In this document: positions 99 to 26,859 of the stretch, piece after piece
Position numbering within the stretch: position 1 is the first letter of the stretch
Layout of the letters: every line of letters begins with the position of its first letter
DNA from: a virus
Taxonomy: Duplodnaviria; Caudoviricetes
IMG/VR virus record: IMGVR_UViG_3300030376_002881
Coordinates: 1-45,807 of that record
Direction: 5' to 3' (one strand)
Length of the DNA: 45,807 nt
Translations under genes and position numbers: made by a program
The notes under the pieces: model-generated
The model's input: the letters and a program-made list of their open reading frames with translations, nothing else
Told to the model about the DNA's origin: nothing
The model's database searches: none

Positions 99-2477
99 CT
101 CAGAAGTATCTGTAGAAAGGTTAAGTGTTTCCAGGTATACACCATCTGTTCTTTCAAATAGGACATACAGTTTTGATCCTAAGAACTCACAGTCCAATAT
201 GTTTGCATCAAACTTCCATACAGACCACGATGACATCAGCTTCTCATTACCCTGCCAGTAGTACCTGTACACGTACATGTTCTTAGTTTCTGTATCACTA
301 AGACACACCAGCATATCCTCGTTACTTGAGGATGCTAACTTGGTTACTTCTCCAGGTATGTATTGAGGAACGTGTGCTGTGACTTCTGTTGCATCGTTGA
401 CCTCGTTGGTGAAGTCAATGAAGTACTCACGTATGCCTGAAAAACTACCACGCTTGAATGGAAAGAATACGTACTTACCAGCAGGGGTAGGTTTAGCTTT
501 TGATGACGATTCAAACTGTGTAGACACATCAATAGAAACAGAAGTAGGAGTAAGAGCATCACCAGCAGTCACCTTGAATTGTTGTAGTTCTGAAAAGAGT
601 AGAAGTGCTTCGTTAAATGGTACTGCGTGTCGTAGGATTGACACTTGATTATTGGACACTGCAACGTCAATAGGATTACTATCTATTGAGGTAAGTGCAG
701 TAGTTGCAAAGAAGTTGTAGTAGTTACCTGCTTCACTAAATATCACATTCTCATCACTAAGAAATCCTAACCTGTTTCTGTGAAAGAAAATGTCGTTGAT
801 TGTGTTACCTAGAAAAGTAGGAAAAGGGTTAGTACTATCGTCACCAACCTTACGAGATCTCCAGCCCTGTCTGACGAATGGAGTAGATACTCCACCAACA
901 TTTTTAGAAATGGTAGCTTCTTGTATAGGCTCATAAATAAATGTAATACCAAGTGGATTTGTCCCTGATACAATGTTAGCATCGTCAAATATCCTCACTA
1001 ATCTGTGAGGCATGGTGGTCATGTCAAAGTGGATATTAAGTCCAGGTTTTACACTTTCTTTCCAGTTACTTCCATCCGCATTGAACTTAACGTAGTAGTC
1101 ATCTTGTTGACGAGTATTATCCCCAATGATACGAATGACAAAATCATCAGGAGAGTTAGCAGCAGGAAGGTCTGTAAACTTTGTAGCTTCTGGAATACCA
1201 TCGTTTTCAAAGTCTGGTGTGAATGAGAATATGTCTCTGTTACCGTGTGAATCTTCTACCTCTACCTGGAACTTTACTTTTGATTGAACGTGTATGACAC
1301 TGCCAGTTCTAGTAAACTTGTAAATATTACCAGATTCACCTGCTATCGTTGTTAAACTTGTTCTATATTTTGTATCAGTAGCACCGTCCTCATCTTTTTG
1401 ATCAGTAGGTAATCTTCCACCAAAACCAAGTTTGGTGTTGTTATCATTTCCTCCTGTTGTGTAATCAAACTCACCCCATGCATCAGTACTTGATGTGTTA
1501 GATGCAGTTTCACCATTAGTAAGTATGTCTGCTATCTTACTTGTACCGATGAACTCTTGGTTTTGTGCAGGAGTATTAGAAGGAGATTGGAAGGCTACTT
1601 TTAATTCAGTATTGTTAGCTAATGAATATCTTACTTGAGTAGCAGGACTACTAGATTCAGTTCCATTTGATTTTGTTAATGGAAAGGTATATGTTGTATT
1701 ACCTGTTCGTGTTATAGCTGGTGTAGTTATATTGAAATCAGTATCAGTTGCATTACTTATAGTAACTTTATTACCTGTTACTAATCCATGATTTGCTTCA
1801 GTTGTTACTGTAACTACATTACTTGATACTGCTAATGATTCTATATTTACAGTAGAAGGTGTAGACTCAGCTTCAGTATTCTTAATACTTACTACATACT
1901 TACTTGAATAGTCACCTTGTTTAACGTAAATTAAACCCTCGTATAAATACCCTGATGCTGTGTCAAGATCATCAGACCCAGAGGGAGATACAGTATTGGT
2001 TCCTCCTTCCCCAGAAGTGTTATTAGAATTAGTAGCTTCAGATACTGTTTTCTGTCTGTTAATAATAAATGTATTATCTGCTACTGTAGTTGCAACTATG
2101 TTTTCTGAGTGGTTAGTAAGACCATCAAAGTAAGTTAAGTCAGATGTACCTACATCAGCATAAGCACTGGTCTTAATAGGCATAGAGTTACCAGATCTGT
2201 CGTAGATCTTCATAAACTCATTGTTACTACTATCGGCCCCTACAACTAACGTATAAGACTCATCCTCATCTCTCTGTATAGTATGAATAAAAGCACCACT
2301 GATACTTGCTACATCTAACTTCTTAACATGTTCAGTACCAGGACGTTTTTCCAGGCCGTTGACCACAGAAGAAATACCATTCTCTTGGATTTCACACTGC
2401 GATGGTAATCTAATCTCAGGAGGTTGCTGTGAAACTCCATTAATAAGATTAGGAATCGTACTGGATACTAATGACAT
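1..2477 (-). CDS. Tail tubular protein B (T7 gp12-like), 5' part; continues across the origin into 45708..45192 (~997 aa in total)
   Basis: Absent from the ORF track; hand translation from ATG 2477 gives MSLVSSTIPNLINGVSQQPPEIRLPSQCEIQENG...GLEKRPG, the typical gp12 N-terminus; in frame with ORF 45192..45800; follows tail tube A. Confidence 0.92.
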   Translation of the reverse strand, partial: MSLVSSTIPNLINGVSQQPPEIRLPSQCEIQENGISSVVNGLEKRPGTEHVKKLDVASISGAFIHTIQRDEDESYTLVVGADSSNNEFMKIYDRSGNSMPIKTSAYADVGTSDLTYFDGLTNHSENIVATTVADNTFIINRQKTVSEATNSNNTSGEGGTNTVSPSGSDDLDTASGYLYEGLIYVKQGDYSSKYVVSIKNTEAESTPSTVNIESLAVSSNVVTVTTEANHGLVTGNKVTISNATDTDFNITTPAITRTGNTTYTFPLTKSNGTESSSPATQVRYSLANNTELKVAFQSPSNTPAQNQEFIGTSKIADILTNGETASNTSSTDAWGEFDYTTGGNDNNTKLGFGGRLPTDQKDEDGATDTKYRTSLTTIAGESGNIYKFTRTGSVIHVQSKVKFQVEVEDSHGNRDIFSFTPDFENDGIPEATKFTDLPAANSPDDFVIRIIGDNTRQQDDYYVKFNADGSNWKESVKPGLNIHFDMTTMPHRLVRIFDDANIVSGTNPLGITFIYEPIQEATISKNVGGVSTPFVRQGWRSRKVGDDSTNPFPTFLGNTINDIFFHRNRLGFLSDENVIFSEAGNYYNFFATTALTSIDSNPIDVAVSNNQVSILRHAVPFNEALLLFSELQQFKVTAGDALTPTSVSIDVSTQFESSSKAKPTPAGKYVFFPFKRGSFSGIREYFIDFTNEVNDATEVTAHVPQYIPGEVTKLASSSNEDMLVCLSDTETKNMYVYRYYWQGNEKLMSSWSVWKFDANILDCEFLGSKLYVLFERTDGVYLETLNLSTDTSESVMEDKTPVLLDRRVQIKSSTSVDTVSDIPYF

Positions 2478-19807: not shown

Positions 19808-19848
19808 GATTTCGAGTCTACCGCCTTCGACCACTCGGCCATCTCTCC
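19808..19848 (-). other. attP core = 5' half of tRNA-Ser(CGA)
   Basis: GGAGAGATGGCCGAGTGGTCGAAGGCGGTAGACTCGAAATC; resemblance ends just after the anticodon loop; 9 bp from the integrase stop. Confidence 0.88.
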
Positions 19849-19857
19849 GCAGTAATA

Positions 19858-20910
19858 TCAATGGGTTACGTATTCAAGATTTTGAATGTTGGTGTAATTT
19901 TGCTCTTTTTTTACACCAGATTGCACCAAATCCACACCACGCTGTTCCAGTACGCTTATGTCTTCTGCACCGTGATCAGGTGCTAAGTGAGCATACCTCT
20001 TTGTCATCTCCTGAGTATTATGTCCCATCAACTCTTGGACGTTATAGATAGGTCTTCCACCTTGCACTAAACGAGAAGCAAAAGTGTGTCTTAATGTGTG
20101 AATAGTAACGTCCTCATAACCTAAATCTTTCGATGCTCTTTTCATCAATCTCCTCATCCATGAGTAGGAATAATTAAGAGGAGTTTCTGCATAAGGATCT
20201 TGCATCTGTCTTCGCCCAAGCATATCCATAACTCTCTTGGTTAGTTTTATTGATCTAGGTTTGTCAGACTTATTAACCCATATTCTTACATAACCATTGT
20301 TATAATCTGAATACGGAACACTTAACATTTCTCCTACTCTCATACCAGTATCACACCCCAAAATTATGACATCCTGCATTTGGACTGCATCTGAAAAGTA
20401 ATTAAGATACTGGTCTTCTTCTTCCCATGTTAACCAACGTATCTTTCCAGGTGGTTCATCCTCCCATAGAAAGTCAGGTACTTGGTTACATTTTTTATAG
20501 GTTTTAGCAGTTTTAAATATCTTACTGAGGCAAGAGTATTTTCGGTTTACTGTAGCATTAGAATTACCTCTCTCTGACTTACAATAGAGTTTAAATTCTA
20601 ATACTGACTCAGAATCTATTCTATCAAGAAGTGTAGTTTCACCAAAGTAATCCATCAACTGTTTACCATTGATTCGTTGGGTTTTTTCACCTCTTGTATT
20701 AGCCCAATGTAGGCTATAGGTTTTTCTAAAACCTTCCATAAGAGTCCATACATCAGTTTTTAATGTTACATCAACTCCATTACGGATCTTGAATAACATA
20801 TCCTTTTCCCAGAATTTAGCTTCTGCTTCACTGGGAAAAGTCTGATCGTATCGTTTACCTTTATGAGTAAACTGTGCTCTGTATGAATTACCTCGTTTAA
20901 TTACGCTCAT
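19858..20910 (-). CDS. int: Tyrosine recombinase / integrase
   Basis: TGMRVGE, K, HTLRHTFASRL, MGH and RYAH catalytic set; N-terminal arm-binding-like segment. Confidence 0.97.
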   Translation of the reverse strand: MSVIKRGNSYRAQFTHKGKRYDQTFPSEAEAKFWEKDMLFKIRNGVDVTLKTDVWTLMEGFRKTYSLHWANTRGEKTQRINGKQLMDYFGETTLLDRIDSESVLEFKLYCKSERGNSNATVNRKYSCLSKIFKTAKTYKKCNQVPDFLWEDEPPGKIRWLTWEEEDQYLNYFSDAVQMQDVIILGCDTGMRVGEMLSVPYSDYNNGYVRIWVNKSDKPRSIKLTKRVMDMLGRRQMQDPYAETPLNYSYSWMRRLMKRASKDLGYEDVTIHTLRHTFASRLVQGGRPIYNVQELMGHNTQEMTKRYAHLAPDHGAEDISVLEQRGVDLVQSGVKKEQNYTNIQNLEYVTH

Positions 20911-21332: not shown

Positions 21333-21626
21333 TTAGATTGGTGGTGGTAGATCAATTATCGATCTTGATGAATAATCTTTTTCGAAATGCAGTGTTGCAT
21401 TTCTAGTTATTTGGCTGATGGTTCTGATCGTAAATCCCCAACCTTTCCACATACCCTGAAAAACAGCAGTATGAGCAATGCCAGTTAGACTTTTCGCCTT
21501 CAGTACCATTCGATCCCATCTCCCTCCTGCGGTAGATGAACTGATTTCTCGGCTGATCTTTGAGTTGTTAAAGCGGTGGTGTCTAGCCACTAATTCGCCG
21601 CTGTGTATGTGATTTTTACCTATCAA
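21333..21626 (-). CDS. Hypothetical protein in the lysogeny module
   Basis: TTG start with GGAGG 5 nt upstream; overlaps the leader ORF stop. Confidence 0.55.
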   Translation of the reverse strand: MIGKNHIHSGELVARHHRFNNSKISREISSSTAGGRWDRMVLKAKSLTGIAHTAVFQGMWKGWGFTIRTISQITRNATLHFEKDYSSRSIIDLPPPI

Positions 21627-21732
21627 TAGGCCCTCCCCATCTGGAGCCTTGGCCCCAATTCCAAAGCCCTTTAATCATTGATTGTGGTGGAAACCAGTAA
21701 TTTGAGCTTGGGCGAATCTTTAAAATTTGCAT
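21616..21732 (-). CDS. 38-aa Trp-rich leader-like ORF
   Basis: AGAAAGGTGA RBS; MQILKIRPSSNYWFPPQSMIKGLWNWGQGSRWGGPIDR. Confidence 0.55.
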   Translation of the reverse strand: MQILKIRPSSNYWFPPQSMIKGLWNWGQGSRWGGPIDR

Positions 21733-21846
21733 AATCTCACCTTTCTTTATGAAATAGTTAAACGAATTCCAAATAAATTAACATACGTAACATTATCATA
21801 CCGCTTGAAATAAAGCAATGGTAATTTATTGTCACATATAGCTTTA

Positions 21847-26235: not shown

Positions 26236-26436
26236 TCACTTATAGACTTGGTTAAAGGCATTCTTACCTATCATTTCACGTAACTTGATCTTAGCTTGCT
26301 TCAAGTTATACAGAACTCTATCTGTATCTTCCTTGTCAATGTCATGGTCTACCCATAGATCACTGACCTTATTAATTAGATCCATCAAGTCATGTCTTGA
26401 CTCAATGATAAGGTTGTTTTTCACCGCCATAATCAC
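26236..26436 (-). CDS. Early hypothetical protein
   Basis: GAGGTG RBS. Confidence 0.62.
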   Translation of the reverse strand: MIMAVKNNLIIESRHDLMDLINKVSDLWVDHDIDKEDTDRVLYNLKQAKIKLREMIGKNAFNQVYK

Positions 26437-26461
26437 CTCTCGATTTGAATGTTACTAAATT

Positions 26462-26531
26462 TGGCGGGCCATGAAGGAATCGAACCTTCCTAGTCTGGTT
26501 TGGAATCAGACCGCATCCCAGATGATGACCC
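26462..26531 (-). tRNA. tRNA-Trp(CCA)-like gene with a shortened D-arm (70 nt)
   Basis: Acceptor GGGTCAT/ATGGCCC, G discriminator, encoded CCA, T-arm GAAGG-TTCGATT-CCTTC, anticodon loop TTCCAAA; only 14 nt between acceptor and anticodon stems. Confidence 0.8.
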
Positions 26532-26536
26532 ACAAT

Positions 26537-26611
26537 TAGCGAGTGGAGCTGCACTGCATGGTTTGGAAGCATGCCCACTATACCTATGTACAGTATAATG
26601 AAACCCCACTC
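26537..26611 (-). ncRNA. 75-nt tRNA-like three-way junction with a Trp anticodon loop and no T-arm
   Basis: 10-bp closing stem GAGTGGGGTT/AGCTCCACTC + GCTA tail; 8-bp hairpin CATTATAC/GTATAGTG; GCATG-C-TTCCAAA-C-CATGC. Confidence 0.65.
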
Positions 26612-26618
26612 TGGGCTC

Positions 26619-26807
26619 TTACTGCTCTAAGTTTGGATTAGCATCCAGTATCATGTTTCGTATTTGATCCATTGAAGTGAATCTAATCCCATAAATAACA
26701 TTGTATCCATCACTATCTTGAGCAGGATGAAATTGACAGTATCCTTTAGTACTAGGATTCCAGTATTTTTCTGGCCTCCTAAAAGGATTAGGTATTTTAC
26801 TTCTCAT
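26619..26807 (-). CDS. Early hypothetical protein
   Basis: AAAGGGA RBS directly after an early promoter. Confidence 0.65.
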   Translation of the reverse strand: MRSKIPNPFRRPEKYWNPSTKGYCQFHPAQDSDGYNVIYGIRFTSMDQIRNMILDANPNLEQ

Positions 26808-26830
26808 AAATCCCTTTCACTGTGAGTAGT

Positions 26831-26859
26831 ATTATCTCACATGTGATGCTAATTGTCAA
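26831..26859 (-). promoter_or_regulatory. Host sigma70-type early promoter
   Basis: TTGACA-17-GATAAT with extended -10 TG. Confidence 0.85.

Follow-up and report, generated by a model that had tools for sequence, protein, structure and literature searches.

A compact tRNA-Trp with a rearranged D arm, predicted from covariation in phages and mobile tRNA arrays

Atypical tRNAs and the locus in the window

To our knowledge, nearly all cytoplasmic bacterial tRNAs have U8, A14 and the 8-9 connector, the known exceptions being tRNA-Pyl, tRNA-Sec and mitochondrial tRNAs. One tRNA-Pyl has no connector, a 4-nt D loop and a 6-bp anticodon stem, yet it translates (PMC7609411). The class of tRNA-Trp genes described below resembles tRNA-Pyl (Methanomethylophilus alvus and other Pyl users) in the missing base between acceptor and D stems, the tiny D loop, the elongated anticodon stem and the short variable region; service to the ordinary translation machinery is a feature of tRNA-Pyl (PMC7609411). 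However, tRNA-Pyl has a CUA anticodon and a dedicated PylRS, whereas the class has CCA, and the tRNA-Pyl of Methanosarcina and Desulfitobacterium is without G18/G19 and T-psi-C (PMC7609411), whereas the class keeps G18-G19 and a canonical T loop. Among the 23 window proteins scanned, no synthetase and no pylS/pylBCD product was found near our gene, and membership of the tRNA-Pyl family was rejected on the CCA anticodon and the absence of pyl family genes.

Mammalian mitochondrial tRNA-Ser(UCN) of type I combines a shortened connector and D loop with a 6-bp anticodon stem and a short variable loop, and keeps G18-G19 and T-psi-C (PMC7609411). It differs in being organellar, in its one connector base and in its Ser identity, whereas the class has a bacterial-type Trp identity, a triloop and up to seven anticodon-stem pairs. 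By analogy, M. alvus tRNA-Pyl and this mitochondrial tRNA would be the nearest architectures. The D arm of tRNA-Sec is also similar, with a fully paired stem, a 3-4-nt loop and a 16:59 contact (PMC7609411), and the 6-bp D stem of the 16-nt variants described below is tRNA-Sec-like, but tRNA-Sec also has an acceptor branch of 13 bp, a long variable arm and the anticodon UCA, which occur nowhere in the class. Allo-tRNA and selC*, with 8/4 or 9/3 branches, were rejected since the class covaries as 7/5.

With regard to biological context, T5 and SP15 tRNA-Tyr acting against retron Eco7 and T5 tRNA-Lys acting against PARIS share the phage setting and a strong promoter with our locus, and the L-arrays of tRNA genes (PMC8421152) have their mobile context in common with the class. 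The phage clade examined here likewise has Tyr and Trp genes at one early site. These counter-defence tRNAs (PMC11555353, bioRxiv 10.1101/2025.02.04.636281) and the L-arrays are canonical cloverleaves with tested activity, whereas the class is known from sequence. No description of its fold was found in the literature searched, which was thin on subscription journals, and no mention was found in the available parts of a review of non-canonical tRNAs (PMC7609411) and a study of novel cloverleaves (PMC5389517). In the Anabaena trn operon neither ARAGORN nor our pattern found a Trp gene, and its aminoacylation data consequently do not cover the class.

The window, by which we mean the whole stretch of 45,807 nt analysed, is a complete-looking 45.8-kb virus record in which two small RNAs lie side by side:

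26462..26531, minus strand: element B, compact tRNA-Trp(CCA), 70 nt
26537..26611, minus strand: element A, 75-nt T-armless tRNA-like RNA, 5 nt upstream of element B

A sequence-only reading of the window had reported a 70-nt tRNA-Trp with CCA anticodon, G73, T loop and CCA end, all of which are present on the minus strand; it had the location right, but did not state the strand and missed element A. The acceptor stem of element B has 7 bp (G1-C72, G2-C71, G3-C70, U4.G69, C5-G68, A6-U67, U7-A66). Position 8 is C, not U, and the D arm has no connector, consisting of a 4-bp stem, a UGG triloop and then 1 nt, in a D region (CATC-TGG-GATG plus 3 nt) of 14 nt against 18-20 in canonical-length genes. 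The anticodon stem has six pairs plus an open A31.C39 and carries the loop UUCCAAA, with the CCA anticodon at 26503-26501 (-). The 3' side consists of a 2-nt AG variable linker, a 5-bp T arm, a canonical T loop, G73 and the encoded CCA. The missing U8, the CATC-TGG-GATG region and the A31.C39 mismatch had all been pointed out before, and all can be read in the sequence.

Compared with a canonical class I tRNA, element B has the acceptor stem of 7 bp, the T stem of 5 bp, the consensus T loop and NCCA; U8 with a two-base connector, A14 and a 7-11-nt D loop are absent, a triloop taking the place of the latter, and the class departs from a 5-bp anticodon stem with an unpaired 26.44 junction. The features expected of the Trp isotype are all there (CCA in a 7-nt loop, U33, purine 37, G73). 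Determinants of TrpRS include G73, the anticodon, G2-C71 and G3-C70, and those in the acceptor of tRNA-Trp from B. subtilis comprise A1-U72, G2-C71, G3-C70, G4-C69 and G5-C68 (PMC9976931); element B shares G2-C71 and G3-C70 with the latter and differs in G1-C72, U4.G69 and C5-G68.

Standard tools gave little. ARAGORN, suggested as a check in the sequence-only reading, called no tRNA gene in the window, and its relaxed and mitochondrial settings returned only noise. The Rfam tRNA model (RF00005) scored element B at 26.8 bits, below the 29-bit gathering threshold. Its single-sequence fold was no better than shuffles (z -1.2), and the homologue-derived structure has -22.6 kcal/mol, the minimum being -23.3. 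When a 401-nt region was compared with cultured phages by blastn, the only matches were to the anticodon and T arms of other tRNAs. Taken alone, element B could pass for a decayed tRNA, and homologues were needed to decide.

A compact class among phage and array tRNA-Trp genes

Homologues were collected in two scans. The viral scan, in which the pattern fixed only the 3' end, the T loop, the anticodon loop and two GG pairs, listed 120 stretches of an estimated 650; at least 119 distinct Trp-like genes had been parsed at that stage, and at least 30 of the 119 had 14-16-nt D regions with varied but pairing stems around an NGG loop. The metagenome scan fixed the inner TC-NGG-GA, left the acceptor-stem position free and listed 118 stretches of an estimated 720, among which at least 98 loci parse as tRNA and the D region is exactly 14 nt in 76 of 100 distinct sequences. 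Together, the listed matches yielded 89 distinct members with a 14-nt D region, and 70 Trp genes of canonical length served as comparator. Mean identity among the 70-nt members is 63%. No evidential weight attaches to the two inner D pairs or to the anticodon and T loops, which the search patterns had set.

The outer two D pairs, which the metagenome pattern left free, are Watson-Crick in 85/89 and 82/89 members, with maxima of 52 and 39 in shuffle controls, which ignore the relatedness of the sequences. Position 8 is G, C or A, and never U, in all 89. Positions 26:44 pair in 81/89 members versus 22/70 canonical-length genes (p 2e-15), 25:45 in 69/89 versus 38/70, and the variable region ends in AG in 72/89 versus 2/70. 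G73 is present in 88/89 and an encoded CCA in 45/89. In 64 of the 65 members that are 70 nt long, L293 being left out, pairing holds in 94.6% of cells, and two-sided changes occur at 20 of 23 pairs; slid controls pair at 34-53%. RNAalifold predicts the same helices unprompted. Element B has the characters of the class: the 14-nt D region, a 4-bp, C-G-closed stem round NGG, the extended anticodon stem and AG.

With at least 89 distinct homologues and compensatory changes in all four helices, element B is more than a chance resemblance and, judged by this covariation, is a real gene and not a decayed one. Covariation among homologues had been proposed as a check, and it is strong across the 89; random decay was not seen. 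The class as a whole is a widespread, covarying compact tRNA-Trp architecture of phages and mobile tRNA arrays. The D arm had been described as truncated. It is indeed short, but our results do not favor simple truncation: it is rearranged and offset by a longer anticodon stem. The open 31-39 pair, presented as distinctive, proved not to be so, being found in 23/89 class members and 14/70 canonical-length genes (Fisher p 0.45); these tRNA-Trp genes show it in general, and it is not specific to the class.

The likely fold, as modelled, has the D stem directly after base 7, closing an N-G18-G19 triloop, and continues after one base with up to seven anticodon-stem pairs, the loop, AG and the T stem. 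The L shape would be kept because the D stem shifts against the acceptor stem and replaces the U8.A14 and 15.48 layers, while the 26:44 and 25:45 pairs would lengthen the anticodon stem. Four D pairs, one junction base and seven anticodon pairs would give the same number of stacked layers as in a normal tRNA; such layer compensation in atypical tRNAs was reportedly described by Steinberg and Cedergren. The 16-nt D-region variants behave as a constant-length rule predicts, with a 6-bp D stem in 12/19 and a mean anticodon-stem extension of 0.6 pairs versus 1.75 in the 14-nt class. G18 and G19, together with a covarying 16:59 contact of the kind known from tRNA-Sec (PMC7609411), would still be docked onto the T loop. 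In 115/122 sequences the first base of the triloop is of the same ring type as T-loop position 59 (both pyrimidine or both purine), with a shuffle mean of 92 and maximum of 103 and a match in 36/74 canonical genes. Pairing of the UGG triloop with the CCA anticodon or the variable region was dropped, since the first loop base varies with 59 and not with those.

At least three other tRNA genes accompany 46 of the 89 members; 21 have none, many of them in short loci. The class member is mostly the sole Trp gene seen in its locus. A second, canonical Trp gene was found beside 0/89 by the filtered count, with one present in L342, which the filter dropped; L205/L251 have a 16-nt variant beside a canonical tRNA-Trp. 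No SecE or ribosomal L33 family match came from the 90 ORFs close to 21 members whose neighbouring tRNAs are few or absent, so that in this small sample there is no sign of a housekeeping chromosomal copy. Plasmid searches gave no 14-nt member among the five matches inspected.

Short D regions were also observed elsewhere. In the same mobile arrays tRNA-Arg, tRNA-Ala and tRNA-Gln genes occur with 14-16-nt D regions and a non-U position 8 (L279, L288, L293, L315, L318, L320, L323, L327, L331, L384, L388 and others), so that the compact D arm may extend beyond Trp. Two candidates did not hold: 36 of 38 viral matches to the 16-nt D-arm pattern alone were chance, and a short-D Trp candidate in L095 was a false parse.

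Cultured phages carry the gene too. On the class model, where clear members score 56-78 bits and canonical Trp genes 27-35, the exact 14-nt form in Acinetobacter phage YMC13/03/R2096, unannotated at L418 478-547 (+), reaches 78.1 bits on a model trained without it. Scores of 56-67 bits were obtained for Streptomyces phages GiJojo and pSt2308 (15 nt), Salmonella phage pSal-SNUABM-01, Klebsiella phage phi1_175008 (16 nt) and Escherichia phage PJNS034. Unannotated compact tRNA-Trp genes of Escherichia and Klebsiella phages lie at L414 about 795-866 (+) and L419 490-561 (+). The GiJojo tRNA cluster with its compact tRNA-Trp ends in a Ro-like RNA-binding gene (L408 2405-3053).

A near variant has been hand-annotated in T5 as one gene, a 71-nt tRNA-Trp(CCA) (GenBank AY543070 35177-35247) and is also found in BF23. 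It resembles the class in its 15-nt D region with an AGG core, non-U position 8, A26-U44 pair, open 31-39 (C31.A39), G73 and CCA, and is missed by ARAGORN. It differs in its single connector base and in its D stem of 3 bp with U.U at the closing position, whereas the class has no connector and a 4-bp D stem closed by C-G; the OSYSP copy scores 36.9 bits on the class model. The T5 gene is matched by 117 T5-like records and is mostly unannotated among the 60 records listed. A T5-type gene was also seen at L421 9248-9178 (-). It is quite possible that the T5 gene has been described earlier.

The early region, its relatives and the integration site

The phage has a T7-type RNA polymerase, the best cultured matches of which are 34-38% identical, as well as primase-helicase, DNA polymerase and head-tail genes; a tyrosine integrase lies just upstream of the polymerase. 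The sequencing run with the best coverage of the window is a marine metagenome and may be the sample of origin; runs with a small share of it were left out as evidence of habitat. Features outside the two RNAs that matter here are:

26831..26859, minus strand: sigma-70-like promoter (TTGACA, 17 nt, GATAAT), an 11/12 consensus match only
27265-27236 and 27459-27430, minus strand: further sigma-70-like promoters, 11/12 consensus
26619..26807, minus strand: 62-aa ORF between promoter and the two RNAs
26236..26436, minus strand: 66-aa ORF directly downstream of the tRNA, strong ribosome-binding motif
19808..19850, minus strand: probable core of attP, identical over 43 nt with the 5' half of a bacterial tRNA-Ser(CGA)

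The tRNA lies in the early region behind the three sigma-70-like promoters, the only strong ones noted in a scan whose total of 12 sites was below the shuffle mean. The element at 26831..26859 recurs at the syntenic site of a close relative, and RNA reads from one run cover the promoter side only, not the tRNA itself. The three near-identical promoters each overlap a conserved, partly palindromic motif (about 48 nt at 94% identity), which may be a repressor operator and is likewise repeated in L004. The 62-aa ORF is missing together with the RNAs in one relative and one strain contig, and phages retain the ribosome-binding motif of the 66-aa ORF whether or not they have the cassette; neither ORF has a PHROG or Pfam match. 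Elsewhere, about 400 nt between small ORFs and a regulator gene upstream of the integrase (21333-21740, minus strand) hold no convincing coding-strand gene, and several GC-rich stretches there have no Rfam match.

The distribution of the gene is patchy. The closest relatives (terminase 95%, RNA polymerase 78-80%) are without it: 0/5 related records match the class model, and in the syntenic position the downstream ribosome-binding motif follows immediately on the promoter. A contig from another sequencing run skips 26441-26830. Phages with an RNA polymerase 48-51% identical carry the gene at 90-94% identity, and the changes among these copies all keep pairs, two of them two-sided in L132. Given its absence in near and presence in distant relatives, the gene is an accessory, exchanged cassette. 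The statement that tRNAs are uncommon in such phages does not apply to this clade: we fetched 80 terminase relatives, 16 of them with at least 4 kb of downstream DNA, and in 12 of the 16 that DNA holds a tRNA (Tyr in 11, canonical-length Trp in 3). The three canonical-length Trp genes share the UUCCAAA loop and A31.C39, and their presence at the site in 3/16 relatives indicates that the compact fold is dispensable there. Across the clade, tRNA-Tyr(GUA) repeatedly occupies this early site, in two distinct sequence types and often directly before tRNA-Trp (L055, L062, L066, L069, L075, L092-L095, L105, L117, L123, L132, L139).

The arrangement of the downstream ORFs bears on the idea of a tRNA that reads through UGA for programmed extension or recoding. 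D-arm changes in tRNA-Trp, as in the Hirsh suppressor, reportedly raise UGA misreading, and in our case the D arm is rewired, TGA ends 17 of the 42 genes examined, and the gene just downstream would gain 70 aa, running into the next ORF. However, the long genes are complete under table 11, read-through would add no more than 10 codons at 11 of the 17 TGA ends, and the closest relatives share the genes but have no tRNA. We regard read-through as very unlikely; recoding was rejected, as the genes read cleanly under table 11. The ORF at 26436-26236 (-) ends with a TGA in frame with the ORF at 26229-26023 (-), so that read-through would fuse them, an arrangement that is likely due to chance. L002 has a similar small protein twice.

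The integration site bears on a further possibility, namely that element B is a decayed pseudogene or complements a host tRNA-Trp broken by integration. Tyrosine integrase, a score below the Rfam cut-off and the ARAGORN miss are in line with it, and tRNA-dependent lysogeny is a published mechanism (PMC10865867). The probable attP core adjoins the tyrosine integrase (19858-20910) and its match to tRNA-Ser(CGA) reaches through the anticodon loop; of that tRNA, it is the 5' half and not the 3' half that the phage supplies. The same site is present in L004 and L005. With a 43-nt core of Ser isotype, long enough to rebuild tRNA-Ser(CGA) and not tRNA-Trp, the integration target is not tRNA-Trp and tRNA-dependent lysogeny falls away. 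Moreover, relatives with the same integrase and core are without the tRNA, and decay is contradicted by the covariation across 89 homologues. We therefore consider this reading largely refuted already, and hardly credible in either form.

The host is not fixed by the att site, since 39 nt of the core occur in 10 GTDB genomes (titled Deltaproteobacteria, uncultured Pseudomonadota/proteobacterium, Geobacteraceae, Nitrospinales and uncultured bacterium). Five candidate host genomes carry a canonical tRNA-Trp; their best class-model score, 43.5 bits at G004:C36:80181-80255, falls between the canonical and clear-member scores.

Element A and the function of the compact tRNA

Element A is predicted to have a closing stem of 9 bp with G and CTA after it, a hairpin of 9 bp whose loop has 7 nt, and an anticodon-like arm with a UCCAAA loop (CCA at 26566-26564), a short linker replacing the T arm; it has no encoded CCA. 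It precedes element B in three variants, namely in the window, in L002/L003 (L002 3133-3058, minus strand) and in L365/L368 (L365 365-291, minus strand). A 188-nt block is 85.6% identical with L002, the flanking 4 kb being unalignable. Changes in its stems all keep pairing and none is two-sided among the three variants, which weakly supports the predicted fold. In two of the three variants, the loop of its first hairpin likewise reads UCCA. Element B occurs without element A in most loci, and in one low-depth contig A seems to lie directly before the downstream ribosome-binding motif without B, a weak observation of 19 letters. An element A pattern with the window's own loop gave no matches, a looser one gave three, one of them chance, and the T5 stable RNAs had no match. 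Element A has no T arm, which makes use by EF-Tu unlikely. One may guess that it is a decoy for an enzyme that binds tRNA-Trp; it may also be a processing or leader structure.

The decoy idea, put forward before for the tRNA itself, fits the T-armless element A better than element B. As a general explanation it would make the pair a non-translating mimic that soaks up TrpRS or a tRNA-targeting toxin, perhaps as a two-headed decoy. Element A keeps the UCCAAA loop and a G after the closing stem in three variants without T arm or CCA, the T5 amber derivative is inactive, and a sponge role has been proposed for array tRNAs (PMC8421152). On the other hand, element B keeps the 7+5 helix, the T loop, G73 and CCA (45/89) under purifying selection, usually fills the Trp slot of multi-isotype arrays and mostly occurs without A, and we find the mimic improbable.

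On the strength of the conserved 7+5 acceptor-T helix, G73, anticodon loop, CCA and the Trp slot in multi-isotype arrays, element B is very probably a working elongator. What it is kept for is less certain. The explanation that we prefer, at a probability of roughly 0.55, is that this conserved, rearranged tRNA-Trp replaces host tRNA-Trp removed by a tRNA-attacking defence; among the functions suggested in the sequence-only reading, a replacement tRNA also appears to be the best. A host-type promoter would give early transcription, host TrpRS would charge the tRNA, UGG codons would be read with it, and the phage would keep it as a compact spare for when defence enzymes remove host tRNA-Trp, the loss of the single-stranded D loop lowering recognition by host nucleases. 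Several observations are consistent with replacement. In related phages this early site is occupied by a canonical tRNA-Trp or tRNA-Tyr, and infection can be rescued by phage tRNAs when a defence depletes tRNA (PMC11555353). Cleavage by AriB is impaired by a U16 change in the D loop (bioRxiv 10.1101/2025.02.04.636281), and differences between T5 and host tRNAs cluster at the D loop (PMC12475279). However, this interpretation should be treated with some caution, as some defence nucleases cut phage tRNAs too (PMC12475279, PMC13056530) and against retron Eco7 the rescue was linked to a strong promoter, not to resistance (PMC11555353). In addition, GenBank notes that the amber version of T5 tRNA-Trp is no suppressor, although the anticodon is a Trp identity element and 10 other T5 tRNAs carry the same note.

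The same structural and identity evidence would also suit a working tRNA-Trp that merely adds supply, through dose or through independence from host modification at 8, 16, 17 and 20, with no resistance to nucleases. The class is without s4U8 and dihydrouridine sites at the positions generally assigned to these modifications, strong consensus promoters lie upstream, and overexpression sufficed against retron Eco7 (PMC11555353). Trp use is ordinary, though, at 1.34% of 12,428 codons in 42 genes, and codon compensation is excluded since Trp has a single codon with ordinary usage. The patchy gain and loss among close relatives, moreover, looks like conflict-driven turnover. We hold added supply to be a tentative alternative to replacement.

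A bolder version of the replacement reading is doubtful in our view. It takes the genes as a second elongator tRNA architecture (Trp and, more loosely, Arg, Ala and Gln) that would shed the D-loop surface read by nucleases and act with a mobile spare-tRNA/decoy cassette. We are just as hesitant about the architecture in that role, with no U8 connector, a fully paired D arm, an NGG triloop and a 7-pair anticodon stem, and give similarly low credence to its decoy part, a T-armless double-CCA RNA paired with the compact tRNA in the clade.

As ARAGORN reports a gene at only 30 of the 89 class sites, tRNA-Trp is under-counted in the annotation of phages and arrays, which bears on surveys that rank Trp among the rarest array isotypes (PMC4758250). 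The compact scaffold may also serve orthogonal tRNA design. In conclusion, a covarying class of ordinary isotype without U8, A14 or connector in cultured phages would make testable how far the ribosome, EF-Tu and TrpRS tolerate such tRNAs, and whether rebuilding of the D arm may be a route by which phages escape tRNA-cutting immunity.
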